Positions 9,576-63,735 of a stretch of 64,000 bases of DNA are shown piece after piece. The translations under genes were made by a program, and so were the position numbers. Position 1 is the first letter of the stretch. Each line of letters opens with the position of its first letter. This DNA comes from an uncultured bacterium (GTDB lineage: Bacteria > Hydrothermota > Tepidihabitantia > B3-TA06 > CAYQJV01), in assembly GCA_964417925.1 (NCBI GenBank), contig CAYQJV010000001.1, positions 22,192 to 86,191 on the forward strand, written 5' to 3'. Below the pieces are notes generated by a model. It saw nothing but the letters and a program-made list of their open reading frames with translations, searched no databases and was not told the origin of the DNA.

Positions 9576-10481
9576 ATGAAAAAAATTGTAAAAACTATCA
9601 TACTGTTCATCTCTTTATTATTCATTTTTGACTGTAAAAAAGAACTAAAACTTCCTGAAAATATTAAAGGGGAATTGGCATTTGTAAGTGATGAAGACGG
9701 CAATAGAGACATATATATAATGAAACTCCCAGAAAGAACTATAAAACAAATAACTTTTACACAAAATACACCTACAAACTCTCAAGTTGAAAACATGTTT
9801 ATCAGTTGGTCTGTTGACAACAAAATAGCCTTTACATCAACCAGGGATGGAAACAATGAAATCTATATCATAAATGCAGATGGCACTGGAGAAAAAAGAC
9901 TAACCAACAACAACTACTTTGACGGATATCCAACTTTTTCTCCGGATGGGAAAAAAATAGCCTTCTCTTCCGCTCCTGAAGGTAAAAAAGATATTTTCAT
10001 TCTTGATTTAACCACAGGCAAAGTAAAAAGACTTACAAAAACCTTAGGAGATGAAATTACTTTAAAATGGTCACCGGATGGTAAGAAAATAGCTTATGCT
10101 GCTTACGTAAAAGGTAAGGCTCAGATATTTGTATACGACTTTAAAACCAAAAAAATAACACAACTCACCCATAATGATGCAGACAATGTAAATCCCGCAT
10201 GGACTCCAGATTCAAAGAAGATTCTTTTTTCTTCAAATAGAACAGGAGACTTTGACATATATATTATGAATGCTGATGGTTCGGATCAAAAACCTCTAAT
10301 AACATCTCCTGAAAATGATGGAATGCCATCGGTATCCAGCGATGGGAAATGGATAGCTTTTCAGTCTTATAGGGACGGAAACTTTGAAATATATATTGCC
10401 TCTATGGACGGAAAGAAAATATATAGAGTGACAAATTCTAAATTTTATGAGAGAAATCCTGTATGGAAACCATTAAAATAG
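9576..10481 (+). CDS. TolB-like periplasmic beta-propeller protein (PD40 repeats)
   Basis: Signal peptide. Repeated SPDGKKIAF…G..DIY blades typical of WD40-like PD40 repeats. SD GGAGGAG 8 nt before the ATG. Confidence 0.65.
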   Translation: MKKIVKTIILFISLLFIFDCKKELKLPENIKGELAFVSDEDGNRDIYIMKLPERTIKQITFTQNTPTNSQVENMFISWSVDNKIAFTSTRDGNNEIYIINADGTGEKRLTNNNYFDGYPTFSPDGKKIAFSSAPEGKKDIFILDLTTGKVKRLTKTLGDEITLKWSPDGKKIAYAAYVKGKAQIFVYDFKTKKITQLTHNDADNVNPAWTPDSKKILFSSNRTGDFDIYIMNADGSDQKPLITSPENDGMPSVSSDGKWIAFQSYRDGNFEIYIASMDGKKIYRVTNSKFYERNPVWKPLK

Positions 10482-10494
10482 CAAAAACTCAATA

Positions 10495-11079
10495 ATGATT
10501 TTTATCATATTTACAGGATTTGTATCTTCTCTTTCTTTTTCTTCTACCTTTATAAACGGAAGTGGAATATATCTTACTCAGATAAATCATGAACCTTTTA
10601 ACTCATCTCCTTATTTTTATAGAATAAGCATTCGTACTGTTATAAAAGAAGTCCCGGTCAATTTGGGAATCTTATGTGAAAAAGAAGACAAAAGTAACAT
10701 TCCCGCTGTATTTTTATCTCTCAAAAGGTCATTTAAAGGTGTACCAGTGACTTTGGATTTAGTTCTACCTTCTGGATTTTTCACAAATAAGTTTATGGCA
10801 TCCTATTTTTTACTAGCTCATATAGCACTATGTTTACATTTGGAAAAAAATTTTTTAAAAGGATTTTCGGTTGGCATAAATACAGGAATAGGATACGCTA
10901 TGTATAAAGTTACACATGACATTGTTGAGGAGCAAAAATGGAAAAGTAATTTTGAAGGGATGGGAAGCATATATTCTACAATGAAGCTTCTCAAAATAAA
11001 AAAACGTGATGTAATATTCTATCAATCTTTTAATATTTTTACTCCATTTCTTTTCTTTTTTGGAATATGTATTCATTGA
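10495..11079 (+). CDS. Hypothetical protein (possible envelope protein)
   Basis: ORF only. Hydrophobic N-terminus. No recognisable motifs. Confidence 0.3.
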   Translation: MIFIIFTGFVSSLSFSSTFINGSGIYLTQINHEPFNSSPYFYRISIRTVIKEVPVNLGILCEKEDKSNIPAVFLSLKRSFKGVPVTLDLVLPSGFFTNKFMASYFLLAHIALCLHLEKNFLKGFSVGINTGIGYAMYKVTHDIVEEQKWKSNFEGMGSIYSTMKLLKIKKRDVIFYQSFNIFTPFLFFFGICIH

Positions 11080-12050
11080 TACTTTTTATTGTTTCTTCTT
11101 ATGAAGAAACGATAGGATTCCCTTTTTTAAAAATAGGTATAGGTGCAAGACCAGTAGCTATGGGAGAGGCATTCACTGCAGTAGCAGATGACCCTCAAGC
11201 CTTATTCTACAATCCAGGAGGATTAGGAAGTATAAAAAGATATGGTATATCTTTGACCACAATGAACGTTTTCTGGATAGGCAATTATACCTCTGCAGCT
11301 GGTATTATAGGGATAGGAAGATACATAGGCATAGGTATATTTGCAGGATTGCTTTCCGCAGAAGATATGTTAAGAAATAAAACAGGAGAAGAGTTAGGAA
11401 AGTTTTCCTATTACGACTCCTATGTGGGAGTAGGGACAGGATGTAGAATATCCAAAAAACTATCTATAGGAGGAAATGCAAGGTTTGTGTATTCAAAGAT
11501 ATATACATATTCTGCAACCTCTTTAACAATGGATTTAGGTGCTCTTTATATTTTTAATAAATTTGTGTCATTTGGAGCCTCTTTAAGGAACCTTGGGACC
11601 CCCAGAATTTTCATTAAAACCCCTGAATTTCCTCCCTTAGTCTTAACAAATGGAATTGCATTCAAATTTTCCTTAGGGAAAAATTACTTATTACTTTCTG
11701 CAGACATTGGCATAAACAACGAAGGAAAGTTAAATATAGGTACAGGATTTGAGCTGAGAATAGCTCCCTTATACCCTGATGAAACATCGCTATCTCTTAC
11801 AGAAGAAGTTTATGGTGTTCTTATAAGAGGTGGATATAAAACAGGAATAGGTGAAGGAGCAGGTGCAGGATTCAGTTTTGGAATGGGAGTGGAATATTAT
11901 ATGGAAGAAAACCTAACTCTCGTAATAGACGGGGTATCTCTGTACCATGGGGTTCTCGGAACCACTGAGAGAGTTTCCTTTTCACTACTCTATGAGCCCA
12001 CAACAAAGAAGAAAAGGCAATATCGTAGTTACCCGCCGCATTCCAAATAA
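11067..12050 (+). CDS. T9SS-associated outer-membrane beta-barrel protein (PorV/PorQ/PorP-like)
   Basis: Signal peptide then FLKIGIGARPVAMGEAFTAVADDPQALFYNPGGLG, which matches the conserved N-terminal motif of PorV/PorQ-type OM proteins. Gly/aromatic-rich beta-strand pattern. The 3' end may be overcalled. Confidence 0.45.
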   Translation: MYSLILFIVSSYEETIGFPFLKIGIGARPVAMGEAFTAVADDPQALFYNPGGLGSIKRYGISLTTMNVFWIGNYTSAAGIIGIGRYIGIGIFAGLLSAEDMLRNKTGEELGKFSYYDSYVGVGTGCRISKKLSIGGNARFVYSKIYTYSATSLTMDLGALYIFNKFVSFGASLRNLGTPRIFIKTPEFPPLVLTNGIAFKFSLGKNYLLLSADIGINNEGKLNIGTGFELRIAPLYPDETSLSLTEEVYGVLIRGGYKTGIGEGAGAGFSFGMGVEYYMEENLTLVIDGVSLYHGVLGTTERVSFSLLYEPTTKKKRQYRSYPPHSK

Positions 12051-38023: not shown

Positions 38024-38053
38024 TTGACTTTTGAAAATATATGCTCATAATAT
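38024..38053 (+). promoter_or_regulatory. Sigma-70-type promoter abutting the secA ATG (TTGACT…CATAAT/TAATAT), suggesting a leaderless secA mRNA
   Basis: TTGACT at 38024-29, -10 at 38046-53, ATG at 38058. No SD. Confidence 0.4.
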
Positions 38054-38057
38054 CTCT

Positions 38058-41000: not shown

Positions 41001-41087
41001 AGAAAATATGGAAAACCGGGAAGAAATGACCCATGTCCTTGTGGTTCAGGGAAAAAATTCAAAAAATGTCACGGAAGATTCTTATAA
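38058..41087 (+). CDS. secA: Preprotein translocase ATPase SecA
   Basis: Canonical N-terminus MLNILKKIFG…, DEAD-like motor motifs, C-terminal Zn-finger CPCGSGKKFKKCHG. The ORF track's TTG at 38031 adds 9 non-conserved residues. Confidence 0.9.
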   Translation: MLNILKKIFGTKQEREIKRLKPIVEEINKVYDKLHGLKDEDLIKKTEDFVQRLYQGEDEKSVMIEAFAVVKEACRRLVGKKWLVRGIETEWNMIPFDVQLMGAIVLHEGKIAEMKTGEGKTLVATMPLYLNALIGRARGLKKEKDFLVNGTPKGVCHLVTVNDYLAARDREWMGPVYESLGLTVGVIQQGMRPEERKPEYNADITYGTNNEFGFDYLRDNMVLRWEDKVQRGHHYAIIDEIDSILIDEARTPLIISGPTEPRDMEYKKWKPAVERLYHSQIVLVNRLVAEAEKLLKEGKEFEAGKKLLQAKRGVPKHKKLMRLEEEPGVKRLIEDVELRFIREKKLHELDEELYFVVDEKQHVVDLTEKGRQLLSPNNPELFVLPDLATKTAEIDKNEKLTPKEKAYEKEKLFEEYAKKNEILHNIHALIKAYTLFERDVDYIVQDGRVIIVDEFTGRLMPGRRYSDGLHEALEAKEGVRIQQETQTLATITLQNYFRMYEKLAGMTGTAATEADEFWHIYKLEVVVIPTNKPVRRIDYPDVIFKTKREKYNAIIEEIVKWHKKGRPILVGTTSVEVSELLSRMLRRRGINHNVLNAKHHQKEAEIVAKAGQPGAVTIATNMAGRGTDIKLGPGVKKCKECCIFNPEAEKDPEKAKLAKECMKEVPCGLYIIGTERHESRRIDNQLRGRAGRQGDPGSSRFFLSLEDDLLRLFGTDRMSGLMERFGPKEGEPIRSPLATKAIENAQKRVEKRNFEIRKRLLEFDDVMNRQREVVYSLRDEILKGENLDDIFLQLFEEVNEKIVETHAISRYPEEWNWEAIEQEFVSLYLTDIVRPSNFTKYTKEDLIAEMNEKSKKAFEAKKQQLGEQFPELEKLVLLSTLDHKWKDHLYQLDIIKEGISLRAYGQKDPLIEYQQESFALFEQMMEEFRKDCIRLLFRAQLRPQTVKRETPMPVHAQKPAMVGAGAKGTQPDPNFNIHEYIRKYGKPGRNDPCPCGSGKKFKKCHGRFL

Positions 41088-51413: not shown

Positions 51414-51431
51414 TGTAACATTTATGTTACA
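51414..51431. promoter_or_regulatory. UAS-1: perfect 18-bp palindrome TGTAACATTTATGTTACA (predicted enhancer-binding-protein site)
   Basis: Inverted repeat TGTAACA-N4-TGTTACA with C-rich 5' flank ccctcaaaaag. Confidence 0.6.
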
Positions 51432-51486
51432 TTTAAATACAGTCTAAGCCTCATAATTACAGATACATACAAAAACCCTTCAAAAG

Positions 51487-51504
51487 TGTAACATTTGTGT
51501 TACA
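51487..51504. promoter_or_regulatory. UAS-2: palindrome TGTAACATTTGTGTTACA (one central substitution)
   Basis: Same half-sites. Centre is 73 bp from UAS-1. Confidence 0.6.
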
Positions 51505-51558
51505 TTCAAAGGCAATTTAAGTAATGTAGTTACAAAGCATACAAATACATTTAAAAAC

Positions 51559-51576
51559 TGTAACATTTATGTTACA
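51559..51576. promoter_or_regulatory. UAS-3: palindrome TGTAACATTTATGTTACA
   Basis: Centre is 72 bp from UAS-2 and about 80 bp upstream of the -24 element. Confidence 0.6.
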
Positions 51577-51646: not shown

Positions 51647-51662
51647 TGGCATGTTTTTCGCT
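51647..51662 (+). promoter_or_regulatory. Predicted sigma-54 promoter (TGGCAT-N5-TCGC; -24 GG / -12 GC)
   Basis: GG and GC are at consensus spacing. The 29-bp block aatctttggcatgtttttcgctatataat is identical to the block at 63289-63317. Confidence 0.6.
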
Positions 51663-51711: not shown

Positions 51712-51739
51712 TTGACAAAAGAATAAAAAAATATAAAAT
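51712..51739 (+). promoter_or_regulatory. Sigma-70-like promoter (TTGACA-N16-TAAAAT) inside the sigma-54 5'UTR, upstream of A1
   Basis: TTGACA at 51712-17, TATAAAAT at 51732-39. SD AGGAAG. The same element recurs at 54809-36 before A2. Confidence 0.45.
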
Positions 51740-51752
51740 TAGGAAGTGTAAA

Positions 51753-52163
51753 ATGAGAGGAGTAATAAAAATATTGGTTTTAGGTATGGTGGTGATGGTT
51801 ATAGCCCAGCCTTCCTATGATGAGAGGTGGGAAGGAGAGGCAGAAGGCACAGTAGTGGTGGATGGAGATACAATTGAGCCATGGGCTCACTGGACTGCCT
51901 GGGTTGAATATGATTATGTGCCTGGTAAGGATACTATTTGGGGAGTATGGCAGGATACGGAGACAGATGCATATGGAAATATATATGGTCATAGAAATGA
52001 GTCTGATGGTTCCGTTTCTGGAACATGGGATTGTGCTAATTATAATGTCTCTGGAGGATGGTCCGGAACCGCCACTGGTGGCGTAGGTAGTAAAGGCTCA
52101 GGAAAGTGGTGGATAAATGGGGAAGATAGTACAGGATGGTGGGAAGGTGAAAGAAAGGAGTAA
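51753..52163 (+). CDS. Small secreted Trp/Asp/Gly-rich protein A1 (136 aa, unknown family)
   Basis: Signal peptide MRGVIKILVLGMVVMVIAQP. Mature part is rich in W, D, G, E (WEGEAEG, GTWDC, WWINGEDSTGWWEGE). First 64 residues are identical to A2. Confidence 0.7.
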   Translation: MRGVIKILVLGMVVMVIAQPSYDERWEGEAEGTVVVDGDTIEPWAHWTAWVEYDYVPGKDTIWGVWQDTETDAYGNIYGHRNESDGSVSGTWDCANYNVSGGWSGTATGGVGSKGSGKWWINGEDSTGWWEGERKE

Positions 52164-52168
52164 AAATA

Positions 52169-52206
52169 AAGAGGGGGAGAGTTAAAAGGCTCTCTCCCTC
52201 TTTTTA
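52169..52206 (+). terminator. Intrinsic terminator/attenuator between A1 and B1
   Basis: AAGAGGGGGAGAG-ttaaaagg-CTCTCTCCCTCTT (12-13 bp stem, one G·U) followed by TTTTT. Confidence 0.6.
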
Positions 52207-52242
52207 AGGAGGGAATATGATGATGTTTTTACTTTTTTTTCA

Positions 52243-54795
52243 ATGATTATAAAAGATGATTTCCTTATATCTAAGGATAATCCAGTGCCATCTTCAAAAT
52301 CAAAGGTCTATGGGAAAGGTAGCAAAAAGGGAATCACAATTGTATGGCAAGATGAAAGGCTTGGAGGTGCATTTATAAAAGGAGATTATGCAGAAATTTT
52401 TTTCCAGAGTTTTGATTCCTTGAGGATGAAAATAGGAGGTAATAGAAGACTCGACATTACCCCTGAATGGAGGGTAAGAGTAGTGGGTGGTATAGGATAC
52501 TTTGATAAGGATGTTTCATTTCTCTGGAATACGGGAGATGGATTGTATTTTTGTAAGTATTCTAATAAAGGGGAACTTAAAATAAAAAGAAAAAGGATAA
52601 TCAGTGATGAAGAGTTTTATGGAAACTTGCGTCCTGATAAACCTGTTGGTTATTCAACTAATGAGATAAATAAAGGATTGGTATGCTTTACTGTGAGTTG
52701 TAAAAATGAAGGAGATAGAGTTTATGCTCTCTGTATCAATTCATGTGGTGAAGTTGTTCTTCCCATATTTACTGTAGATAGTATGCTTCCCGGAACCCCT
52801 TATTTCTGGAATGCAAAAGGTGCTATTTCAGATAGGGCATTTGGAGTTATTTATTGGGAAGGTGGGGTTGAGTATCGGATTAAGATATATACTCTTGATG
52901 GAAAATTTATTGATAAAATAATTTTGGGAAAGGGAGAGGGAACTCCCTATATTGAGATGGTAATGGATACCATTTATGTTGTGTGGTGTGAGTATCCTGA
53001 GATGAGCGTGTGGCTTGAGAAGTATGTTTTGAGAGAAGGTGGGGTTTCAAGGGAGTTTAAGGAGATGTTAAGCAAGGATGCATTGTGGTCTTCAAACATG
53101 CAGGTTGCTTTTGAATGGTGGGATAGGGATGAAGGACCTGTGGAAATTCCTTCTCTGGTTGTGATGACCGCATGGCATGACTGGGATGAAAAGAAGATAA
53201 AGTGCAGGGTATATTCAGGAGCAACTGGTGGTGAAATTGCAGGTGGTTCTTTTTCTCCCTCCGTTTCTGATACTGCAACTCCTGACTTTTCCCTTTTCTA
53301 TGGTGCAGGTAGGTTTCACATAGCATATGTTGACGACAGTAACCGGGTGATTGATGTTGCAACATATCTTACTCCTGATACCGAGCTTGTGTTTGCAGGT
53401 CCTCAGGTTGTAAGTGATGACAGCTGTGGTGAAGGATGGAGTGATGCAAGGCTTGCGGTTAACAGTAATGGAGATTTTGCAATTCTTTACTGGTCACCGG
53501 AAGGAAAGGCATTTGTAAAGTTTTTTGACAGAGATGGAAATCAGATATCCAAAGAGATAGATATTTCTACTCTCTTCACAACAAGATGTCCTTCAATGAT
53601 AGCTCCAATGATAGCAATGGATAATGAAAGAAATTTAATGGTAATAGCTTTGGAGGATTGGCTGGAGACTCTTCCGCCTATAAGGATAGAGTTTTATGGA
53701 TTGATTGTTAAGCCTTCAGGAGAAATAAAGAGGTTCAATATAGGGAGGTATCCTGAGGAGCTATACATAGGCGATAGTTATCTCACCTGTAATTCAAAAG
53801 GGGATTTCCTTTTCCTGTGGGATGAATTTCCATTTGGTTCTGAGGAAGAGAGAAATGTTATAAAGGGCAGGTTTTTTGATGCAAATGGAAGGCCAAAGAC
53901 AGATGTTTTTACTCTCAAGTTTCCTCTTGGCCCTATACACCCCACTGGAGCTGATGTTTTTGAGAATGGAGGGGCGGTTGTGGCGGCTGCAATGTCAAAT
54001 GCTGCACGCTCATGGGCAGTTGTGATAGACAGCACCGGTAATCCTTTGACAGAGTTAATAGAGTTTATACGCACCTATCCCGTTATTGCCTGTGATGGGA
54101 GGAATAGATGGGTGATGGCGGGATTAAATGTAAAGCCAAACTACATGGTTTTTGATAGAAAGGGCAATGTGATAAAGGATTTGCAGGTGATAGATGCATA
54201 TACATTTCCTTGGCCTTCTTTCTTTGGTCCTCGCCAGTTGTGGTGTGATATGGATACATCAGGGAGGTTTATAATCTACTGGACAGATTTTACTGAGGAT
54301 GCAAATCCTGATGTAAGGGCACAGATATTTTCAAGGGATGGTGACCCGGTATCAGAGATATTTGAGGTTCATAATCCTGATGCATTTCCTTATGAGTATC
54401 AGCTTTCTACCTGGCAGGGACTTGGAGTGACATCGGATAGGATTTATTTTATGTGGCTTGACAATCGCAGGATAAAGGGTTGGGACATATATGCAAAGGT
54501 AACGGACTGGGAGTATCCAACAGGAATTAAAGAAAAGAGAGAAAGTAAAAACTTAGATATAGAGTATTTGGGACCCCATATTTTAATAAGGTTTTCCCTT
54601 TCTTTTCCTCAGAATTTATCTATCAAACTCTACGATGTTTCAGGAAGAGTGGTAAAAAGCATCTTTTTAAAGGCAAAGAAAGGAGAAAATACAATTGAGA
54701 TAGAAAAAAATTTCCCTCCTGGAGTGTATTTTTTGAGAATAGAAGGGAAGGAAAAAGAATATAGCACTAAGATTCTCATTGTAAAAGGGAAATGA
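52243..54795 (+). CDS. Large beta-propeller-repeat protein B1 with T9SS C-terminal sorting domain. The 5' end is frame-disrupted relative to its SD-positioned ATG at 52217
   Basis: C-terminus LSIKLYDVSGRVVKSIFL…PGVYFLRIEG…KILIVKGK matches the Por_Secre_tail pattern. Internal repeats GDF-hhh-W…(I/V)xGRFFDxNGxP. SD AAGGAGGG at 52207-14 serves the ATG at 52217, whose frame stops at 52244 unless the T8 run (52233-40) gains one T. Confidence 0.7.
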   Translation: MIIKDDFLISKDNPVPSSKSKVYGKGSKKGITIVWQDERLGGAFIKGDYAEIFFQSFDSLRMKIGGNRRLDITPEWRVRVVGGIGYFDKDVSFLWNTGDGLYFCKYSNKGELKIKRKRIISDEEFYGNLRPDKPVGYSTNEINKGLVCFTVSCKNEGDRVYALCINSCGEVVLPIFTVDSMLPGTPYFWNAKGAISDRAFGVIYWEGGVEYRIKIYTLDGKFIDKIILGKGEGTPYIEMVMDTIYVVWCEYPEMSVWLEKYVLREGGVSREFKEMLSKDALWSSNMQVAFEWWDRDEGPVEIPSLVVMTAWHDWDEKKIKCRVYSGATGGEIAGGSFSPSVSDTATPDFSLFYGAGRFHIAYVDDSNRVIDVATYLTPDTELVFAGPQVVSDDSCGEGWSDARLAVNSNGDFAILYWSPEGKAFVKFFDRDGNQISKEIDISTLFTTRCPSMIAPMIAMDNERNLMVIALEDWLETLPPIRIEFYGLIVKPSGEIKRFNIGRYPEELYIGDSYLTCNSKGDFLFLWDEFPFGSEEERNVIKGRFFDANGRPKTDVFTLKFPLGPIHPTGADVFENGGAVVAAAMSNAARSWAVVIDSTGNPLTELIEFIRTYPVIACDGRNRWVMAGLNVKPNYMVFDRKGNVIKDLQVIDAYTFPWPSFFGPRQLWCDMDTSGRFIIYWTDFTEDANPDVRAQIFSRDGDPVSEIFEVHNPDAFPYEYQLSTWQGLGVTSDRIYFMWLDNRRIKGWDIYAKVTDWEYPTGIKEKRESKNLDIEYLGPHILIRFSLSFPQNLSIKLYDVSGRVVKSIFLKAKKGENTIEIEKNFPPGVYFLRIEGKEKEYSTKILIVKGK

Positions 54796-54808
54796 AAAGG
54801 AAGAAAAA

Positions 54809-54836
54809 TTGACAAAAAATAAAAAAAATATAAAAT
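54809..54836 (+). promoter_or_regulatory. Sigma-70-like promoter (TTGACA-N16-TAAAAT) for A2-B2. No UAS or sigma-54 element in this copy
   Basis: TTGACA at 54809-14, TATAAAAT at 54829-36. Duplicate of the 51712-39 element. Confidence 0.45.
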
Positions 54837-54840
54837 AGGG

Positions 54841-55254
54841 GTGGTGAGAAGAGTAATAAAAATATTGGTTTTAGGTATGGTGGTAATGGTTATAGCCCAG
54901 CCTTCCTATGATGAGAGGTGGGAAGGAGAGGCAGAAGGCACAGTAGTGGTGGATGGAGATACAATTGAGCCATGGGCTCACTGGACTGCCTGGGTTGAAT
55001 ATGATTATGTGCCTGGTAAGGATACTATCTGGGGTATATGGTGGGATGATGAGGGAGATACAGGGAGGATATATGGACACCGAGATGAAGCAAACGACTC
55101 TGTTTTTGGAACATGGGATTGTATCAACTGTGATGTATCTGGGGAATGGGAGGGAAAGGCAAATTATCCTACGACAGATAATGCACAAGGAGAGTGGTGG
55201 GTAACAAGTGGTGGAACTGGGGATGGCACATGGAGTGGGCATAGAGAAGAATAA
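54841..55254 (+). CDS. Small secreted Trp-rich protein A2 (paralog of A1; GTG start, or GTG at 54844)
   Basis: Identical signal peptide and N-terminal half to A1. C-terminal half diverged (IWWDDEGDTGRIYGHRDE…GEWWVTSGGTGDGTWSGH). Confidence 0.7.
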   Translation: MVRRVIKILVLGMVVMVIAQPSYDERWEGEAEGTVVVDGDTIEPWAHWTAWVEYDYVPGKDTIWGIWWDDEGDTGRIYGHRDEANDSVFGTWDCINCDVSGEWEGKANYPTTDNAQGEWWVTSGGTGDGTWSGHREE

Positions 55255-55260
55255 AAACAT

Positions 55261-55282
55261 GGGAGCCGGAAATCCGGCTCCC
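55261..55282 (+). other. GC-rich hairpin without U-tract between A2 and B2 (stability/processing element rather than terminator)
   Basis: GGGAGCCGG-aaat-CCGGCTCCC followed by ATAAAAAGGAGG (SD of B2). Confidence 0.45.
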
Positions 55283-55300
55283 ATAAAAAGGAGGTAAAAA

Positions 55301-57898
55301 ATGATATTTTTATTGTTTTTAATAGTTATAAAAGATGATTTCCTGGTATCTAAGGATAATCCATGCCATTCTTTTAAGTGTCAGGTTTTTGGAAAAGGAG
55401 AGGTGGATGGTTATACCATTGTATGGAGAGATGGGAGAACCGGAACAATTAATTTACCGAGTTTTTATGAGGAAATTTTCTTTCAGTGTTTTGATTCAAA
55501 TAGAGTTAAAATTGGGGATAACACAAGACTTGGGACATCTTCTGAGTGGAAGACAAGATATCTCGGGGGCATAGGATACTTCAAAGATGCAGTATCATTT
55601 ATATGGAATGAAGGATCCGGGATGGGGCAGGCAGATATTCAGGATACCATGGGAACCATTTACTTCTGTAAGTATGATAACAATAGGAATATGGTGATAA
55701 AACCTAAAAAACTCATTGATCATAATGATATTCGTATTTATCCATTTTATCCAGTACATTATTCTACCAATGGATGTAACAGAGGACTGGTATGTTTTGG
55801 GGAGATTGGAGAAAAGAAAACAAACTTTTATGCCTTGGTTATTGATTCTTGTGGAGAAATTCTTCTTCCTTTATTTGTTGTGGATACGGTTTCTGGGTCC
55901 CATCCAATTGTGAGGGGAGCAATATCAGACAGGTATTTTGCAATATTTTATTCCACCACTTTCAATCCTGCTATTTCCAGGATGAAGGTCTATTCAATTG
56001 ATGGAAAGGAAATTGATAGGATAGTTTTTGGAGAAAGCTTCAAGGCTTCTGCTATTAAAGTATTTCTTGACACAATTTATGTTGTTTGGAGTCCGTATTT
56101 TTATGATAGGGGTGAAGAGCTATGGTTGGAGAAGTATGTGGTTAAGGATGATGGTGTTGAGAGGGTATTTCAGGAGATTTTGATGAATAGATATCCAGCA
56201 AATATGCAGGTTGCTTTTGGATGGTGGGATAGGGATGAAGGACCTGTGGAGGTTCCTTCTCTGGTTGTGATGATCGCGTGGCATGACTGGGATGAGAAGA
56301 AGATAAAGTGCAGGGTGTATTCAGGAGCAACTGGTGGTGAAATTGCAGGTGGTTCTTTTTCTCCCTCTGTTTCTGATACTGCAACTCCTGATTTTTCTCT
56401 TTTCTATGGTGCAGGAAGGTTTCACATAGCATATGTTGATGACAGTAACCGGGTGATTGATGTTGCAACATATCTTACTCCTGATACCGAGCTTGTGTTT
56501 GCAGGTCCTCAGGTTGTAAGTGATGATACCTGTGGCAGGGGATGGAGTGATGCAAGGCTTGCAGTAAACAGCAATGGAGACTTTGCAATTTTTTACTGGT
56601 GCTATTATTATGACAGTCTGCGTGCCTTTGTGAAATTTTTTGATCAAAATGGAGATGAACTTTCAAAAGAGATTGAGGTTCCTCTTCGTTTCACAAGGTT
56701 TACCAATGTAACGACGGCTATGGATGATAGGAGAAATTTGATGATAATACATGCTCCTGAGGTTCTGGAAAAAAATGAGAATGGTCGTCCCACAAGGATA
56801 AGGTTTTATGGGGTTATTGTTAATCCCTCTGGAGAGGTCAAAAAGTTTACCATAGGGGAGTATCCACCTGATGAGTTTTACATGTCCTGGCATAGTTATG
56901 TTGCATGTAATTCTAAAGGGGATTTTCTTATACTCTGGTGTCATTTTCCTGGAGGGGATGGTCCTGAAAATGTTATAAGGGGCAGGTTTTTTGATGCAAA
57001 TGGAAGACCGAAAACAGATGTTTTTACTCTCAAGTTTCCCATAGGTCCCATAATGCCCACTGGGGCTGTTGTTTTTGAGGATGGAGGGGCGGTTGTAGGA
57101 GCTGCACTGTCAAATGCTGCACGCTCATGGGCGGTTGTGATAGACAGCATCGGTAATCCTTTAACAGAATTAATAGAGTTTATACGCACTTATCCTGTTA
57201 TTGCCTGTGATGGGAGGGATAGATGGGTGATGGCAGGATTAGATGTAAAGCCAAACTGCATGGTTTTTGATAGAAAAGGAAATGTGATAAGGGATTTGCA
57301 GGTGATAGATGCATATACATTTGCCTGGCCATCCCCAATTTTCCCTCAGCAGTTATGGTGTGATATGGATACATCAGGGAGGTTTATAATTTACTGGACA
57401 GATTTTACCGAGGATGCAAATCCGGATGTCAGGGCACAGATATTTTCAAGGGATGGTGACCCGGTATCAGAGATATTTGAGGTTCATAATCCTGATGCAT
57501 TTCCTTATGAGTATCAGCTTTCTACCTGGCAGGGACTTGGAGTGACATCGGATAGGATTTATTTTATGTGGCTTGACAATCGCAGGATAAAGGGCTGGGA
57601 CATATATGCAAAGGTAACGGACTGGGAGTATCCAACAGGAATTAAAGAAAAGAGAGAAAGTAAAAACTTAGATATAGAGTATTTGGGACCCCATATTTTA
57701 ATAAGGTTTTCCCTTTCTTTTCCTCAGAATTTATCTATCAAACTCTACGATGTTTCAGGAAGAGTGGTAAAAAGCATCTTTTTAAAGGCAAGGGAAGGAG
57801 AAAACAGGGTTGAAATAAAAAAGGATTTTCCCCAGGGAGTGTATTTTTTGAGGATAGAAAAAGGGAAAGTTTTACACAAAAAAATAATAATATTGTAA
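55301..57898 (+). CDS. Large beta-propeller-repeat protein B2 with T9SS C-terminal sorting domain (paralog of B1)
   Basis: SD AAGGAGGT 6 nt before the ATG. Short hydrophobic N-terminus MIFLLFLIVI. C-terminal 310 aa are almost identical to B1, including the CTD. Confidence 0.75.
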   Translation: MIFLLFLIVIKDDFLVSKDNPCHSFKCQVFGKGEVDGYTIVWRDGRTGTINLPSFYEEIFFQCFDSNRVKIGDNTRLGTSSEWKTRYLGGIGYFKDAVSFIWNEGSGMGQADIQDTMGTIYFCKYDNNRNMVIKPKKLIDHNDIRIYPFYPVHYSTNGCNRGLVCFGEIGEKKTNFYALVIDSCGEILLPLFVVDTVSGSHPIVRGAISDRYFAIFYSTTFNPAISRMKVYSIDGKEIDRIVFGESFKASAIKVFLDTIYVVWSPYFYDRGEELWLEKYVVKDDGVERVFQEILMNRYPANMQVAFGWWDRDEGPVEVPSLVVMIAWHDWDEKKIKCRVYSGATGGEIAGGSFSPSVSDTATPDFSLFYGAGRFHIAYVDDSNRVIDVATYLTPDTELVFAGPQVVSDDTCGRGWSDARLAVNSNGDFAIFYWCYYYDSLRAFVKFFDQNGDELSKEIEVPLRFTRFTNVTTAMDDRRNLMIIHAPEVLEKNENGRPTRIRFYGVIVNPSGEVKKFTIGEYPPDEFYMSWHSYVACNSKGDFLILWCHFPGGDGPENVIRGRFFDANGRPKTDVFTLKFPIGPIMPTGAVVFEDGGAVVGAALSNAARSWAVVIDSIGNPLTELIEFIRTYPVIACDGRDRWVMAGLDVKPNCMVFDRKGNVIRDLQVIDAYTFAWPSPIFPQQLWCDMDTSGRFIIYWTDFTEDANPDVRAQIFSRDGDPVSEIFEVHNPDAFPYEYQLSTWQGLGVTSDRIYFMWLDNRRIKGWDIYAKVTDWEYPTGIKEKRESKNLDIEYLGPHILIRFSLSFPQNLSIKLYDVSGRVVKSIFLKAREGENRVEIKKDFPQGVYFLRIEKGKVLHKKIIIL

Positions 57899-58014: not shown

Positions 58015-58332
58015 ATGGTTTCATTACCGAAAAGTACTGTATACGGGGATGGTGTTAAAATCAACTCTTTACATGCAATACAGCTTCTTGACATGGAAAT
58101 TACATCTGTTAAAAGAAAAAGACGTGTAAAAAGTTCTTTGAGCACAATGTTCTTTATCAACCTCCTCTACAAAAAAGAATGCAATAAAATTACTGTCCAG
58201 ATGGATCCTGTAATAACTCACAAGAGTTATGACTACATAAATCATTGCTATAGAAACAGCAATAATAAAAAAGATAGTTTCCAAAAATTAAAGAAAATTT
58301 ACAACGAAGTAATAAACTTAACTAACAGGTGA
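58015..58332 (+). CDS. Small hypothetical protein (105 aa) translationally coupled to the kinase-EBP gene
   Basis: Strong SD then ATG at 58015 (the ORF track's 57988 start lacks an SD). Stop TGA overlaps the downstream GTG start (GTGA at 58329-32). No recognisable motif. Confidence 0.45.
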   Translation: MVSLPKSTVYGDGVKINSLHAIQLLDMEITSVKRKRRVKSSLSTMFFINLLYKKECNKITVQMDPVITHKSYDYINHCYRNSNNKKDSFQKLKKIYNEVINLTNR

Positions 58333-61300
58333 GCAGGTATAAAATAGTAGAAAAGATAGGGGAGGGAAATTACACCGTAGTATATAGAGCATATGACATC
58401 CTTTCTCAGAAGGAAGTGGCATTAAAAACTCTAAAGAACAAAGGAATTGATCCCGTGATTCTTAAAAGAGAGTATGTATTTTTAAAAAAATGCTCCCATC
58501 CTTATATAGTAAAGGTATATGAAGCAGGGTACTTAAAAGACACTCCTTATTTTACAATGGAGTACATAAAAGGAGAGGATATAAAGCAGTATCTAAAAAA
58601 GAAACGAAACGAGCAAAATTTCTGGACAATTTTTTCCACGCTCTTTTTAAAAATAGTTGCAGGAGTATCCCACTTTCACTTTAAAGGAATAATACATGGC
58701 GATCTCAAACCAAACAATATTCTTGTAGATGAACAGGACAATGTGAAAATAATAGATTTTGGTTTTGCCTTATTAAAAGGAGAAAAACCAGAGGGAACTA
58801 CAGTAGTATACACTGCTCCTGAAATCCTTAAAGGAAACCTTGATTATAGAGCAGACATTTATGCTATAGGGATGATAATGTACGAAATTATAGAAGGTAA
58901 AGATTTATTTACTCAACTCACCCCTGTAAATATTGTAAAAGAAAAGTTAAAATTTATTCCTTCTTTTTCAAAACCTATACCTTCTGAACTTAAAAATCTT
59001 GTGAAAAATATGCTTTCTCCAGAACCTTTCTTCAGACCGGATGCAAAAGAAATATACAGCACACTTTCAAAACTATCTGCAGAAAAAATAGAGATACAAT
59101 CCCAAGAGGAAATGACCACAATGCCAGTGGTAGGAAGAGAAGAACTAATAGATACTGCTTTAAAAGAGGGTAACAAAATAATATTCTATGGAGACCATGG
59201 TTATGGAAAATCAACTTTATTAAAAGAAATATCTTTTAGGGCTTGGCTTAAGAAAAAAAGGGTATTTGAAATCAATAAAGATAAAGAATACCTGCTTCTT
59301 GAATATTTAAAAACTCACTATAAAGTTAAAGCAACATCCAGGGAACATCTGTTTGCAGATATTGTATCCTCCCTTGAGAAAGAGTACGACATCTTCATAT
59401 TTGATGACCTACATCTATACTCTGAAGATGATATTGAGTTTGCAAGGTATCTTTATCTTTCCACAAAGAAGAATGTAATATTCTCAGCATTACCTTTAGA
59501 GTCCTTAAAAAAGAAGTTTGAAGAACCAGGCAGAATAGCGATAAAAAATATTCCTTCATTATCACCTAAAGAAATAAAAACTCTTGTATATATTCTTTTC
59601 CCAACCCTATCTCAGAAAGAGGAACTTACAGAAGAGCTCTATAGAATAACAAAAGGAATACCTCTGCTTTTAAAAAGCATTATTGAGATATTTTTAAAAG
59701 AAAAAATCCTTAAAAAAGAAGAGGATAAATTTATTTTTAATAGAGAGAAAATCAAAGGGTTAGAACTACCGAAAACTGTAAAAGAATTTGTAAAGAATTC
59801 ATTCAAAGAATTAAATGAAGATGAAAAAAACTTCTTACTTGCTGTCCACCTATTAAAAGACTTTGCATCCTTATCCAACATCTATCAAATGGTACAACTA
59901 AAAGAGGATAAGATATATTCCATAGCAGAAAGTTTAAAAATAAAAGAACTTATAAAAATAATCCAAAAAAACAACACAATTATCTACACACTTTCAACTG
60001 GAATTTATATCCCCTTTATAAAAAAACTAAAAAGTTATAAAGACCTTTTGGAAAAAAGTATAAAAATAATTGAAAAGGAAAACAGCACCAAAAAAATATA
60101 TCTTCTTGCAGAATACAACCATATTCTCGGTAAAAAAGAAAAGGCAGTTGATTATCTCTACACTGCAGTAAATACGGCAAGAAAAACCTCCCTCCTTTGT
60201 GAAGCAAAGAAATTTATAGAAATACTCATCCAGAACTATCCTATAGAAGACATACCAAACCCTTGCAAATTTTGTATTGTAGCCGGAGACATCTATCTAC
60301 TGCTTCATGAATTAAAAAAGGCTCAGACATTTTTCTCAATATCATTTTCCTTCTGCCCTCAAGAAAGAAAAAGTGATATTCATCACAGGATTGCTCAAAC
60401 AATGTTTTATCAGGGAAATATCAAAGATGCAAAACTGGAAACAATAAAGGGATTAAAATATGCAAAAGATAAACATGAATTATTGAATTTTCTATCATGG
60501 CTTTACATCTTTGATGGTGAAAAGCAAAGAGCAGAAAGAATCTTAAACCATGTAATAGCACATACAAATAACAAAGAGATACTTTCAAATGCATACTATA
60601 ACCTTGCAATACTTTACAAAAAATATAACCAATTTATTAAATGTGCTACGGTGCTTGGGAAAAGCATAAAATATCTAAAGGAAAAAGACATCTATGGTTA
60701 TGCGTTAAGACTTGAAATTGCTTGTGAAATGCTACTTCAGAAGGGATTTTTTAGAAATGCAGAAAGAATACTTTTAAAAATAAAAAATATTTGGGGAAAA
60801 ATTAAAAACTTAAATAAATATACATCAACTTTAATAAACATGGGAAGAATAAAAAGATTTGAAAATCCCAAAAAAGCACTTGAATACTTCCATCAAGCAG
60901 AAATCATGAGTCTCAAAATAAAAGATTATGAACTTTTTGCAAGTGCCCTTCTTAACTCTGCATTCTTATTTGAAACATACGGAAGAACTGAACAGGCTCT
61001 TGAAAGCATAGGTAAACTTCTTACATACGAACAAAAAATTTCAGAAGAGAGATTTTGTAAAGGAGTTTTTTATTATACAAAGTATCTACTTTTAACGAAT
61101 CAGATAGAAAAAGCAGAAGAATTTCTTAAAACCATCAAAAGGAAAGACTCTTCTTGGTGCCTTTTATCACAGACATTGGTTCTTTTTGAAAAAAATGATG
61201 ATAAAAGATTCAGAAAGGAGATGGTAGAAATACTATTAAGGGAAAATACCGAAGAAGAAGTCTCTGAAGCTCTTAATATTCTTTTTGAATATCATTACAA

Positions 61301-63149
61301 TAAAAATGATTTGGAAAGATGTAAAACCATCCTTGAAAGGATTAAAAAGATATCATATGCGAAAAAAAATCCTTTTAAAGAAGTTGAGATAATGTTAAAA
61401 ACAGCAATCCTTTTAAAAGATAAAAAACTACTTGAAGAAACAATAAAAAGAGCAGAAAGAATTCACTATTTCAATGCAAAACCCCTTGCCCTATCTATAC
61501 TTGGAAAGATATATTATGAGAAAGGAGATTACTTGAAGGCATATAAACATCTAAAAGAAGCAAGGGAAAATTTTGAGAGAATAGGAATGATAAATACCGC
61601 AGAAAAGATAAAAAAATATGAAGAAAAAGCAAAGGAAAAAAGTATAGAAATCCAAGTACCGGAAAGGAAATACTTAGATACACTTGAAAGAATAAGCGCT
61701 GTGGTAAAGGACTATTTTGGAAAAGATGAGTTTTTCCTTGAACTTTTAAACATTCTGATAGAAGCAACCTCTGCAGAAAGAGGAATGGTCATGATAGGGG
61801 AGAACCAAGAAAATCTATACTGCGTGGGAACTACAAATATAGATGAAGTTACTTATGTCGATGCAACCGCATTTTCAAAGACTGTATTAAAACATGTAAG
61901 AGAAGGTAAAAGAGGGATATATACAGAAGATGCAACAAAAGATCCCAGGTTTAAAGATGCAGAAAGTGTCAAACTAAAAGAGATAAAGTCAATTCTATGC
62001 GTTCCATTAATGGCAAAAGATGAAGTTATAGGAGTTCTCTATCTTGATAGTTCACTCAAAAAAGGACTCTTTACAGAAGAAACTCTAAAATTCATGGAGT
62101 CTGTATCAAATATAATAGGCACATTTGTGTATACCTCTTATACCGCAGAGAAAAAGTTTAAAGAACTTGAAAGGATAAAACTAAAAACTCAAGAAATAGT
62201 AATAGGAAGATCAAGAAAAATAAAAAGGATATTCAAGGAAATCCAACAAATTGCTCAAACAGATTCAAACATCCTCCTTATAGGAGAAACAGGAACAGGT
62301 AAAGGGGTAATTGCACGGTTAATTCATGAAAAGAGCAGGCGGAGCGAATATCTCTTTCAGTATATAAACTGTGGAGCAATTCCCTATGAACTATTTGAAG
62401 CAGAACTATTTGGATACAAAAAAGGAGCCTTCACAGGTGCAAGAGAAACAAGAAAGGGCTTACTTGAAGAGGCTCATAAAGGAACCGTTTTTTTGGATGA
62501 AATAGCAAATATTCCAATATCTGTCCAGGCAAAGTTGCTGGATGTAATAGAGCGAAAAAAAATAAGAAGGCTTGGAGAAAATATAGAAAGGGATATTGAT
62601 GTAAGGTTTATATTTGCAACAAACAGAGATTTAGAACAAGAAATAGAAAAGGAAAAGTTCAGAAATGACCTGTATTACCGAATTTCAACAACTGTTATTG
62701 AAATTCCACCACTAAGAGAAAGAAAAGAAGATATTCCTATATTTGTAGATTTCTTCATAGATAAATTTTCAAAAGAACTTAACAAAAATATAAAGGGAGT
62801 TTCACAAGAAGCCATGGAAATACTATTAAAATACCACTGGCCAGGAAATATAAGAGAGCTTTCCAATGTAATTGAACGGGCTGTAATTATGGCAGATAAA
62901 GAAACCATAGGCAAAAATCACATAGATAGAGGAATAATTGAATCAGTAATACCACCAGCCCCTCTAAAAATTGAAACAGAAAAAGTAAAGAAAGAGATGA
63001 TAATAAAGGCACTTCAACTCCACAAAGGTAACATCAAAAAAACAGCCCAATACCTGCACATAACCCGTCAACACCTCTCCAGGCTTTTAAAAAGATACAA
63101 CATTGACCCAGCCCAGTATAAACACCCCCAAAACCCCCAAAAAGTGTAA
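58329..63149 (+). CDS. Multidomain one-component regulator: Ser/Thr protein kinase + P-loop NTPase + TPR array + GAF + sigma-54 activator AAA+ + Fis-type HTH (1606 aa)
   Basis: Kinase motifs VALKTL, HGDLKPNN (58695-718), DFG, APE. P-loop GDHGYGKST (59190-216). Long TPR-like helical repeats. GAF-like block LLNILIEATSAERGMVMIG…VLYLDS. Sigma-54 AAA+ Walker A GETGTGKG (62283-306), GAFTGA (62424-41), Walker B VFLDEI, WPGNIRELSNVIERA. C-terminal HTH KTAQYLHITRQHLSRLLKRY. Confidence 0.8.
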   Translation: MSRYKIVEKIGEGNYTVVYRAYDILSQKEVALKTLKNKGIDPVILKREYVFLKKCSHPYIVKVYEAGYLKDTPYFTMEYIKGEDIKQYLKKKRNEQNFWTIFSTLFLKIVAGVSHFHFKGIIHGDLKPNNILVDEQDNVKIIDFGFALLKGEKPEGTTVVYTAPEILKGNLDYRADIYAIGMIMYEIIEGKDLFTQLTPVNIVKEKLKFIPSFSKPIPSELKNLVKNMLSPEPFFRPDAKEIYSTLSKLSAEKIEIQSQEEMTTMPVVGREELIDTALKEGNKIIFYGDHGYGKSTLLKEISFRAWLKKKRVFEINKDKEYLLLEYLKTHYKVKATSREHLFADIVSSLEKEYDIFIFDDLHLYSEDDIEFARYLYLSTKKNVIFSALPLESLKKKFEEPGRIAIKNIPSLSPKEIKTLVYILFPTLSQKEELTEELYRITKGIPLLLKSIIEIFLKEKILKKEEDKFIFNREKIKGLELPKTVKEFVKNSFKELNEDEKNFLLAVHLLKDFASLSNIYQMVQLKEDKIYSIAESLKIKELIKIIQKNNTIIYTLSTGIYIPFIKKLKSYKDLLEKSIKIIEKENSTKKIYLLAEYNHILGKKEKAVDYLYTAVNTARKTSLLCEAKKFIEILIQNYPIEDIPNPCKFCIVAGDIYLLLHELKKAQTFFSISFSFCPQERKSDIHHRIAQTMFYQGNIKDAKLETIKGLKYAKDKHELLNFLSWLYIFDGEKQRAERILNHVIAHTNNKEILSNAYYNLAILYKKYNQFIKCATVLGKSIKYLKEKDIYGYALRLEIACEMLLQKGFFRNAERILLKIKNIWGKIKNLNKYTSTLINMGRIKRFENPKKALEYFHQAEIMSLKIKDYELFASALLNSAFLFETYGRTEQALESIGKLLTYEQKISEERFCKGVFYYTKYLLLTNQIEKAEEFLKTIKRKDSSWCLLSQTLVLFEKNDDKRFRKEMVEILLRENTEEEVSEALNILFEYHYNKNDLERCKTILERIKKISYAKKNPFKEVEIMLKTAILLKDKKLLEETIKRAERIHYFNAKPLALSILGKIYYEKGDYLKAYKHLKEARENFERIGMINTAEKIKKYEEKAKEKSIEIQVPERKYLDTLERISAVVKDYFGKDEFFLELLNILIEATSAERGMVMIGENQENLYCVGTTNIDEVTYVDATAFSKTVLKHVREGKRGIYTEDATKDPRFKDAESVKLKEIKSILCVPLMAKDEVIGVLYLDSSLKKGLFTEETLKFMESVSNIIGTFVYTSYTAEKKFKELERIKLKTQEIVIGRSRKIKRIFKEIQQIAQTDSNILLIGETGTGKGVIARLIHEKSRRSEYLFQYINCGAIPYELFEAELFGYKKGAFTGARETRKGLLEEAHKGTVFLDEIANIPISVQAKLLDVIERKKIRRLGENIERDIDVRFIFATNRDLEQEIEKEKFRNDLYYRISTTVIEIPPLRERKEDIPIFVDFFIDKFSKELNKNIKGVSQEAMEILLKYHWPGNIRELSNVIERAVIMADKETIGKNHIDRGIIESVIPPAPLKIETEKVKKEMIIKALQLHKGNIKKTAQYLHITRQHLSRLLKRYNIDPAQYKHPQNPQKV

Positions 63150-63162
63150 CATTTATGTTACA
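63145..63162. promoter_or_regulatory. UAS-4: palindrome TGTAACATTTATGTTACA overlapping the regulator's stop codon
   Basis: TAA stop (63147-49) is inside the left half-site. C-rich flank cccccaaaaag. Confidence 0.6.
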
Positions 63163-63217
63163 TTTTGAGGCGGTCTAAGTTACGTAATTAAGTATATATA
63201 CAAATACCCCCAAAAAG

Positions 63218-63235
63218 TGTAACATTTATGTTACA
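63218..63235. promoter_or_regulatory. UAS-5: palindrome TGTAACATTTATGTTACA
   Basis: Centre is 73 bp from UAS-4 and about 70 bp upstream of the -24 element. Confidence 0.6.
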
Positions 63236-63294
63236 TTTTGAAAAAACCCCAATTTTTAAGTTACGGTGTTTTTTGACTTAATTTTTAAAATCTT

Positions 63295-63310
63295 TGGCAT
63301 GTTTTTCGCT
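63295..63310 (+). promoter_or_regulatory. Predicted sigma-54 promoter (TGGCAT-N5-TCGC), second copy
   Basis: 29-bp block identical to 51641-51669. SD AAGGAGGT and ATG at 63371 lie downstream. Confidence 0.6.
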
Positions 63311-63370
63311 ATATAATTATTAGTGTATGAAAAGGGAAATAAAAAACAAAAAAATAAAAAGGAGGTAAAC

Positions 63371-63532
63371 ATGAAAAAGTTGTTAGCATTGCTTGTTTTT
63401 GTTGGTGGTTTGCTTTTTGCTGATCCGCCTTCCCCTTGTGGTGGACCTGGAGATGATCCTCCTGATCCTACACCACCACCTCCTATTCCTATAGACGTAG
63501 AAAATATTGTTGAGGTGATACCGGGGGAGTAA
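63371..63532 (+). CDS. Small secreted Pro/Asp-rich peptide (53 aa precursor)
   Basis: Strong SD. Signal peptide MKKLLALLVFVGGLLFA. Mature DPPSPCGGPGDDPPDPTPPPPIPIDVENIVEVIPGE. The ORF track's 63323 start lacks an SD and sits at the predicted TSS. Confidence 0.55.
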   Translation: MKKLLALLVFVGGLLFADPPSPCGGPGDDPPDPTPPPPIPIDVENIVEVIPGE

Positions 63533-63735
63533 TGCTTAGAACTGAGGGGGCAATAAGGCTGAAGGCGAGAAAGGGATTAAAGGGATTAGAGATAAAGAAT
63601 GGGGACTATGTACGCATATTCACCACTACCCTGGATGATGAGTTTCTTGCAGAAATCCTTCGTTCTGTACCCAGATGTTATGAAGTACGGATAAAGCATG
63701 AAAGATTTGATGTTGAACTTTCCCTTACGCATTAG
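63532..63735 (+). CDS. Hypothetical 67-aa protein, start overlapping the upstream stop (TAATG)
   Basis: ORF with 1-nt start/stop overlap to the peptide gene. No recognisable motif. Confidence 0.35.
   Translation: MLRTEGAIRLKARKGLKGLEIKNGDYVRIFTTTLDDEFLAEILRSVPRCYEVRIKHERFDVELSLTH

Follow-up and report, generated by a model that had tools for sequence, protein, structure and literature searches.

How does a protein that ends in a sorting domain for the T9SS (type IX secretion system) cross the inner membrane when no canonical signal peptide can be recognized at its start? The T9SS has been described for the Fibrobacterota-Chlorobiota-Bacteroidota (FCB) superphylum, and its cargo is delivered by Sec (PMC9127263; PMC12618676). 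The question is raised by a locus in a 64,000-nucleotide stretch of DNA from an uncultured bacterium (contig CAYQJV010000001.1 of assembly GCA_964417925.1, positions 22,192 to 86,191; the whole stretch is called the window below). At window positions 52243-57898, two large genes, here named B1 and B2, encode proteins with a T9SS-type C-terminal domain (CTD). An earlier note on this region had remarked on the lack of a canonical Sec signal in both proteins, and had proposed that they carry atypical signal peptides or signal anchors, or that export uses something else. The SecA encoded in the window has its closest named matches in metagenome-assembled genomes (MAGs) of WOR-3 (60-66% identity), and the organism is assigned on sequence grounds to candidate division WOR-3.

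The answer proposed here is that B2 still has part of a signal peptide. We consider it fairly probable that its short hydrophobic N-terminal stub is a minimal signal that consists of nothing but the hydrophobic region and would lead the protein to Sec or to the signal recognition particle (SRP) and from there into T9SS export. For export competence, leader cleavage and the presence of a complete T9SS, we rely on inference.

Sorting domains and propeller bodies of B1 and B2

A type A T9SS sorting domain is found at the extreme C-terminus of both B proteins, as the earlier note had suspected. The PF18962 model (Por_Secre_tail) matches residues 784-846 of B1 (E 2.8e-10) and residues 803-864 of B2 (E 8.4e-9), both above the gathering score. 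The NCBIfam type A model TIGR04183 matches B1 (E 3.5e-13) and B2 (E 1.3e-10) above its 23-bit cut-off; the type B model TIGR04131 is not listed for either protein at E <= 0.1. A profile of the B family also matches solved T9SS CTDs (8glj_D, E 1e-9). In having a CTD of about 70 residues at the chain end, an FCB host and a PorV/PorQ-family gene nearby, the B proteins resemble described type A cargo. They differ in that described cargo has a cleavable N-terminal Sec signal (PMC9127263; PMC12618676) whereas B2 has a hydrophobic stub of nine residues, and in that their host belongs to WOR-3, in which no T9SS has been studied. No paper that names both WOR-3 and type IX secretion was found, and among the papers listed by broader T9SS searches none concerned WOR-3 or T9SS cargo without a signal.

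No Pfam or NCBIfam model matches the body of the B proteins. The repeat motif that had been noticed in them, GDF/GRF...W...FFD.NG, occurs four times in each. An AlphaFold2 model of B2, based on a 26-sequence alignment, is all-beta, with a predicted local distance difference test score (pLDDT) of 80.1 and a predicted template modelling score (pTM) of 0.78. Its best matches in the Protein Data Bank (PDB) are the double or tandem propellers DDB1 and SF3B3, with template modelling (TM) scores of about 0.4, and further matches include IFT-A, LRP6, NHL domains and sialidases. Since the model is all-beta and its best matches are double or tandem propellers, the earlier description of the bodies as beta-propeller-like is right. 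A role in binding, adhesin- or lectin-like, is a reasonable guess.

The extent of the B family depends strongly on how it is searched for. A word-index search found three proteins only, namely B1, B2 and one relative at 84% identity, and the profile version of this search returned mostly unrelated CTD proteins. An exhaustive HMMER search found 431 homologs at E <= 0.001, and most of those among the matches listed are about 850-950 amino acids long with many matched repeats. A scan of GTDB genomes found nothing with B2 as a lone query; with an eight-sequence alignment it detected members in WOR-3, Latescibacterota and Ignavibacteria MAGs. The homology is full-length (E 3.9e-42 for P0010; L007 is aligned across residues 2-865), and the family homologs examined carry Por_Secre_tail.

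The family plan consists of a signal peptide followed by the motif (V/I)IKDDFLVNDDTxGG, referred to here as the N-cap, then fourteen units of about 54 residues with the consensus VAVDSSGNFVVVWEDERNGNSDIYAQRYSSDGTPLGSNFKVNDDEGNASQSYPS. A C-terminal segment follows (NQPDxFxYNHQ...W.DNRRHKGWDIYAKVTDW, with the motif NRRxKGWDIYAKVTDW), then a linker and the T9SS CTD. Even the regular family members have only sub-threshold matches to the body (BNR_4, DUF5122, DUF7055). Fourteen blades would most simply form two seven-bladed beta-propellers.

All of the features that define this family, namely full-length homology, the N-cap, about 14 blades, the NRRxKGWDIYAKVTDW motif and the CTD, can be traced in B. 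We therefore class B1 and B2, from their sequences, as diverged members of a large uncharacterised surface-protein family of FCB-superphylum bacteria. Compared with other members (P0010, P0013, P0032, P0159 and others; WOR-3, Latescibacterota and Ignavibacteria), B has the same length, N-cap, C-terminal motif (NRRHKGWDIYAKVTDW) and CTD, but its blades are far more degenerate, its N-cap reads FLVSKDN rather than FLVNDDT, and its leader has 9 residues where the others have 15-27. A hidden Markov model (HMM) of the 54-residue repeat, derived from regular members of the family, detects 14 units in the closest homologs; in B only one unit is strong (689-730) and several are weak. Because only one B blade still scores well against the family repeat, B is a strongly diverged 14-blade protein.

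The leader of B2

B2 begins with MIFLLFLIVIKDDF. Its ATG at 55301 lies 7 nucleotides (nt) past a GGAGG, and a TAA at 55295-55297 lies 4 nt upstream. Given this stop codon and the position of the ribosome-binding site, an upstream or alternative start is ruled out, and the earlier reading that no in-frame start is hidden upstream stands. The same facts bear on whether the start or frame of B has been mis-assembled or mis-called, so that a normal signal peptide exists. The sequence is MAG-derived, B1 has a homopolymer frameshift and a related A gene (L002, see below) has a 1-nt deletion, all of which would fit such an artefact. However, the stop codon and the ideal spacing of GGAGG largely refute it for B2, and the same architecture is present in three other independent assemblies; we regard an artefact as very improbable.

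A canonical Sec signal is made up of a basic n-region, a hydrophobic h-region and a c-region with small residues at -1 and -3 (PMC9360617). Only the h-region is found in B2 (IFLLFLIVI), at the position homologous to that of the family signal peptides, and the absence of a canonical tripartite signal is thus borne out. The mean Kyte-Doolittle hydropathy of the leader is 3.57, and its best nine-residue window (3.86) equals the top transmembrane segment in the window. No lysine or arginine precedes the core in B2, L001, L002, P0002 or the frame-corrected B1, and the junction ...LIV|IKDD lacks small -1/-3 residues. The sole formal signal peptidase I (SPase I) site, F-L-V-S17|K, lies inside the conserved N-cap strand and is conserved in the B lineage.

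Other kinds of signal were considered and rejected. B2 has its first cysteine at residue 22 (NPC), where the L-x-x-C context is missing, and B1 has none at that place, which argues against a lipoprotein signal for signal peptidase II (SPase II). The B leaders contain no arginine, and hence no (S/T)RRxFLK motif of the twin-arginine translocation (Tat) pathway, and the prepilin-type motif is absent from them. The stretch could also have been an element of the fold, such as a strand that closes the propeller; this was rejected on the grounds that residues 1-8 are unstructured (pLDDT < 50) in a confident model, whose first strand is KDDFL at residues 11-15.

The family provides the context in which the stub can be interpreted. 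Of 144 family sequences that start with methionine, 71 have the motif [IV][IV]KDDF[LV]V in their first 200 residues, and in many members it lies directly behind a signal peptide of 15-27 residues. Some of these leaders are classical (MKRGVSFLTFSIALACGAVVVPVEAG|VIKDDC in P0010, and MLKFKLLSLLLLPFLLFPQ|ILRDDF). In a subgroup of about 855 amino acids, with a WOR-3 genome among its sources, the leaders are 15 residues long and contain no basic residue (MSTFFLALTILVCGG|VIKDDF in P0032, MWLLLLVTIMSGWSG|IIKDDF in P0013, and MSFLVLTLTVLLTGG|VVKDDF). Two more leaders, in P0045 (MNIFLILLLC|RFENTEFLVNDD) and P0144, also appear very short at the protein level.

In B2 the N-cap motif begins at residue 10. 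Because the IKDDF motif directly follows signal peptides in many members, the hydrophobic stretch of B is best read as the positional homologue of the family signal peptide, reduced to its hydrophobic core, and B appears to have lost the xGG or xSG cleavage region. The paradox of a T9SS cargo without a signal largely dissolves, since the family context supplies homologous signal peptides. Of the two kinds of signal considered in the earlier note, the atypical signal peptide is favoured by this positional homology, but a true signal anchor is unlikely, as 9-10 hydrophobic residues are too short to span the membrane. The suggestion that export uses something else finds no support: family members carry their own signal peptides and the B stub is itself conserved.

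Four intact relatives, which stem from independent assemblies, show this conservation: MIFLLFLIV (B2), MIFLLFLTV (L002), MLIFLVSMI (P0002) and MLIFLISVV (L001). A GGAGG site stands in front of the stub in the three for which there is DNA (B2, L001 and L002; P0002 is protein only), and all substitutions within the stub are hydrophobic or Ser/Thr. Over the first 150 codons, synonymous divergence (pS) is 0.54-0.67 in all pairs except the near-identical B2 and L002 (0.045). The ratio of non-synonymous to synonymous substitution (dN/dS) of the B bodies is about 0.35, from which the genes appear to be under selection and not dead, and it stays well below 1 along the whole gene.

These values bear on whether the leader is simply decaying, that is, whether the signal has eroded past function, export is poor or nil, and the paralogues are becoming pseudogenes. 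The B1 leader is out of frame, the stub falls 6-7 residues short of the smallest signal peptides among the homologs and offers no cleavage site, the B repeats are degenerate compared with the family (one strong unit of 14), and a dN/dS of 0.35 signifies moderate constraint only. All of this would be expected of decay. However, the open reading frames (ORFs) of 850 and 865 codons are both intact, and the four independent relatives keep an uninterrupted hydrophobic stub and a strong ribosome-binding site despite high synonymous divergence. The dN/dS ratio lies well below 1 throughout the gene, and the CTD, which would be pointless on a cytoplasmic protein, is well conserved. Decay is accordingly judged an unlikely explanation.

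The minimal-signal route that we prefer would run as follows. In this WOR-3 lineage nothing would be left of the leader but a hydrophobic core of 8-10 residues from Met1, which would act as a very hydrophobic targeting signal to SecYEG, probably via SRP or SecA, and which might either remain uncleaved or be cleaved at an unusual site. The leader may stay attached to B, because there is no -1/-3 site at the junction and because cleavage at Ser17 would remove the structured N-cap strand. B2, as the working copy, would reach the periplasm and fold there, and the CTD would take the folded propeller via the T9SS to the surface.

There is a partial precedent for a signal without charge. Hikita and Mizushima are said to have found (J Biol Chem 1992) that engineered E. 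coli signal peptides dispense with the N-terminal positive charge if the core is long and rich in leucine. B2 likewise has no lysine or arginine before its core of about nine residues (Leu/Ile/Phe). However, the engineered constructs reportedly kept a c-region and a cleavage site and were tested experimentally, whereas the B2 leader is natural and has no c-region.

A number of points weigh against a minimal signal. In the family sample, every signal peptide that precedes the motif is longer than nine residues (the shortest have 15-16). B2 is without two of the three signal-peptide regions of the canonical scheme (as defined in PMC9360617), with no small residue at -1 or -3 of the homologous junction, and use of the only formal SPase I site would cost the protein a conserved, structured strand. 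If the leader is not cleaved, it could keep B at the inner membrane and prevent passage through the T9SS. B1, one of the pair, is already leaderless, which is also expected under relaxed selection. The T9SS core (PorK/L/M/N, Sov/SprA and PorU) was not seen within the 64-kb window. Finally, the argument from the lineage as a whole, which follows, is based on four or five proteins only.

Other exported proteins in the window show comparable N-termini. A PorV/PorQ-family outer-membrane protein, which is T9SS-associated (NF033709 scores 110.6 bits, the cut-off being 90, and its profile begins at residue 17), has MYSLILFIVSS|YEE as its longest possible N-terminus, in which the leader is 11 residues long and uncharged. 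Being an outer-membrane barrel, this protein should be exported through Sec. An ORF that adjoins its gene (MIFIIFTGFVSSLSFS) and the second of two adjacent subtilisin-family proteases (MNNIFFLFSILHLLNG, uncharged) also have no basic n-region. Since these three share them, short uncharged leaders look like a habit of this lineage, in a small sample. Further exported proteins of the window are classical in this respect (MWKKMF..., MKKIVK..., and the A proteins described below).

The PorV/PorQ gene lies in an apparent operon with 9576-10481 and 10495-11079, which encode a TolB-like PD40 propeller and a 194-residue protein of no known family whose leader is uncharged. SecA itself (38031-41087) has 1018 residues, and its DEAD-domain match covers residues 14-527 for a 290-position profile; WOR-3 SecA homologs are comparably long, at about 985-1010 residues.

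The A-B module and its two copies

Positions 52243-57898 lie within a tandem duplication, in which each module of about 3.1 kb consists of two genes, a small A and a large B (Table 1). A2 falls inside 52243-57898 and was absent from the earlier description of the region. Rfam and tRNA scans of the 64-kb window gave no matches.

Table 1. Positions of the genes and regulatory elements discussed in the text (window coordinates).
Feature	Position	Strand	Description
PorV/PorQ-family outer-membrane protein	11067..12050	+	T9SS-associated
Subtilisin-family protease 1	15131-18724	-	1197 aa; type A T9SS CTD, TIGR04183 35.3 bits
Subtilisin-family protease 2	18774-21308	-	844 aa; TIGR04183 22.4 bits, just below 23
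Three palindromes	51414..51576	+	TGTAACATTT(A/G)TGTTACA; 72-73 bp spacing; 0 matches expected by chance
Sigma-54-type promoter	51647..51662	+	TGGCATGTTTTTCGCT (GG-N10-GC); upstream of A1; identical 16-mer at 63295
Sigma-70-like element	51712..51739	+	TTGACA-N16-TAAAAT; just upstream of A1; 11/12 matches
A1	51753..52163	+	136 aa; Trp-rich, predicted secreted; classic signal peptide
Hairpin A1-B1	52168..52203	+	16-bp with U-run, terminator-/attenuator-like; -30.2 kcal/mol, z -4.97
B1 leader, wrong frame	52217..52246	+	MMMFLLFFQ*; 5 nt after AAGGAGGG
B1	52243..54795	+	850 aa propeller protein; type A T9SS CTD ~780-846 (54580-54780); no in-frame leader
Sigma-70-like element	54809..54836	+	TTGACA-N16-TAAAAT; upstream of A2
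A2	54841..55254	+	137 aa; A1 paralogue, 71% identity to A1
Hairpin A2-B2	55259..55284	+	11-bp, GC-rich, no U-run on + strand; -22.9 kcal/mol, z -6.41
B2 leader	55301..55327	+	MIFLLFLIV; 9 residues, no K/R, no small -1/-3 residues; directly before IKDDFLV
B2	55301..57898	+	865 aa tandem beta-propeller (predicted); type A T9SS CTD ~799-864 (57695-57892)
Activator protein	58329..63149	+	1606 aa; Ser/Thr kinase - NTPase - TPR - GAF - sigma-54 activator - HTH_8
Pro-rich peptide, predicted secreted	63372-63533		53 aa; starts MKKLLALLVFVGGLLFADPPSPCGGPGDDPPDPTPPPP

The A proteins form a small conserved family, Trp/Gly-rich and predicted to be secreted, without a Pfam match, and it is to them (A1 and A2) that the textbook signal peptide of the module belongs (MRGVIKILVLGMVVMVIA|QPS). 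The model of A is a small beta-barrel (pLDDT 76.6) with a weak resemblance to the NHBA C-domain and to TbpB-type and lipocalin-like barrels (Foldseek E 5e-3, TM 0.55), and the barrel is predicted from this model to be of a ligand-binding kind. An A-like gene precedes a B-like gene in L001 (a contig from a hydrothermal-vent metagenome), L002, L005 and L006, and the pairing is kept down to 31% B identity.

Two further readings of the stub bring in A. In one, the peptide targets Sec but is then retained, with a role of its own as a loose membrane tether or in docking to a partner such as A. The absence of a -1/-3 site, the conservation of the pair over such a range of B identity and the ligand-binding kind of barrel predicted for A are all in keeping with this. 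However, 9-10 residues cannot span the bilayer, and in L005 and L006 the signal peptides of the A-paired homologs are of the ordinary kind, seem cleavable and end in AG, so that the pairing seems independent of a retained leader. A retained peptide with its own role is considered improbable, to about the same degree as decay.

In the other, export would be independent of Sec, with folded B hitch-hiking on A via Tat or taking some other route. B has no canonical signal and its conserved partner has one, and A2 reads (M)VRRVIK, with a twin arginine. However, only one arginine is present in A1 and in every other A homolog (MRGVIK, MREVIK), RRVIK does not fit RRxFLK, and the A core is very hydrophobic and Sec-type. 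A conserved, hydrophobic stub would also be needless on a hitch-hiker, and family members have signal peptides of their own. Hitch-hiking via Tat is rejected, as the twin arginine is confined to A2 and the A core is Sec-like, and Sec-independent export in general is given very little weight.

If B2 carries a minimal signal, B1 is the copy that has lost it. Behind a ribosome-binding site (AAGGAGGG), ATGATGATG at 52217 opens a leader in another frame (MMMFLLFFQ*), as the earlier note had seen. This mini-ORF holds a T8 run at 52233-52240, and its TGA stop overlaps the in-frame ATG of B1 (ATGA). One T added to the run restores MMMFLLFFSMIIKDDF, and the leader is intact on the gene corresponding to B1 in L001 and P0002. 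From these sequences, the B1 leader appears to have been lost through a 1-nt frameshift in the T8 run. B1 would then be either off, or made leaderless via re-initiation at the ATGA overlap, or revertible by slippage. Its present frame may result from a slip that inactivated it recently, from a switch between T8 and T9 that can be reversed, or from a variant in the assembly or the population.

Phase-variable surface proteins, such as those of the opa type in Neisseria, carry a repeat tract in the leader-coding region. The frame of B1 is likewise set by a homopolymer within leader-coding sequence, but T8 is short for a contingency locus and the tract is absent from B2, L001 and L002. A one-off mutation is at least as likely as phase variation. 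In the metagenome contig L002 (524-560), one nucleotide is missing from the signal-peptide region of an A2-like gene (MRGVIKILFWIRW*); this is either an assembly error or a second frame change in a leader region.

The two B genes also form a mosaic of identity. Over 300 nt they are 96% identical (53093-53392 versus 56199-56498), and pS falls to 0.16 in codons 600-750 from 0.67 in codons 1-150, so that the C-terminal third is the closer. L002 shows a different mosaic pattern. The B1/B2 mosaic, together with the different one in L002, suggests that the tandem copies have exchanged sequence by gene conversion or recombination.

Control of the module and meaning of a minimal leader

The palindromes upstream of A1, which can also be written TGTAACATTTNTGTTACA, are presumed to be binding sites for a sigma-54 activator, and the 1606-residue protein encoded downstream of B2 is presumed to be the regulator of the flanking sigma-54 promoters. 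A promoter is found at the same position upstream of A in two other loci, as a perfect TGGCACGATTTTTGCT in L001 and as TGGCACGGGAATTGCT in L005, where B is 31% identical. Since the A-B loci of both L001 and L005 carry it, sigma-54 control of the module appears to be conserved. Set against the 14-blade family, the combination of A-B pairing with a sigma-54 promoter is common to the B locus and L005. In L005, two GGACA-N4-TGTCC palindromes (GGACATAAATGTCC and GGACAAAGATGTCC, at 70-110) lie about 100-130 bp upstream of the sigma-54 promoter; the architecture is the same, with a probably different activator specificity.

The palindrome recurs twice just after the activator gene, at 63145 and 63218 (TGTAACATTTATGTTACA), and these two copies are followed, within 63145-63533, by the second TGGCATGTTTTTCGCT promoter and by the gene for a small proline-rich peptide. 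The same regulator probably controls this gene as a second output.

The earlier note had presented B1 and B2 as the output of a circuit of sigma-54 and a kinase-type enhancer-binding protein. The palindromes, the TGGCATGTTTTTCGCT promoter and the loci L001 and L005 make such a link plausible, but the sigma-54 output is strictly the A1 promoter. The extension to B is limited by the hairpin with a U-run between A1 and B1 and by the sigma-70-like promoter before A1 and A2, an element that is conserved before A2 and in L001 and L002.

A strong GC-rich hairpin is present between A and B in every A-B locus (also at 963-986 in L001 and 744-774 in L005). The sequences differ and the position is conserved; a U-run is found in the A1-B1 hairpin only. 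The hairpin may determine how much A is expressed relative to B, or make the A transcript more stable. Because strong hairpins separate A from B, B is probably made at a lower level than A.

The order that is accepted for T9SS cargo, Sec first and T9SS second, is not overturned by this locus, and the apparent paradox is mostly removed. What is left is a modest oddity, an unusually short natural leader without a cleavage site on a predicted T9SS cargo of an unstudied phylum. A stronger version can be formulated, in which this nine-residue uncharged leader is a fully functional natural Sec/SRP signal on T9SS cargo and signal-peptide rules are relaxed throughout the WOR-3 lineage. We hold this version to be possible but doubtful; if it is true, the known lower limit for bacterial signal peptides would be lowered, and standard predictors would systematically miss the secretome of a phylum.

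The survey delimits a large family of T9SS propeller proteins that had no annotation and that can be recognised by the N-cap motif. In one branch of this family, B forms a conserved pair with a small beta-barrel protein that is predicted to be secreted, under what appears to be a sigma-54 promoter. If the stub works, it would be among the shortest natural bacterial export signals, and in WOR-3 and uncultured FCB lineages related to it, exported proteins and T9SS proteins would be under-counted by secretome predictions.

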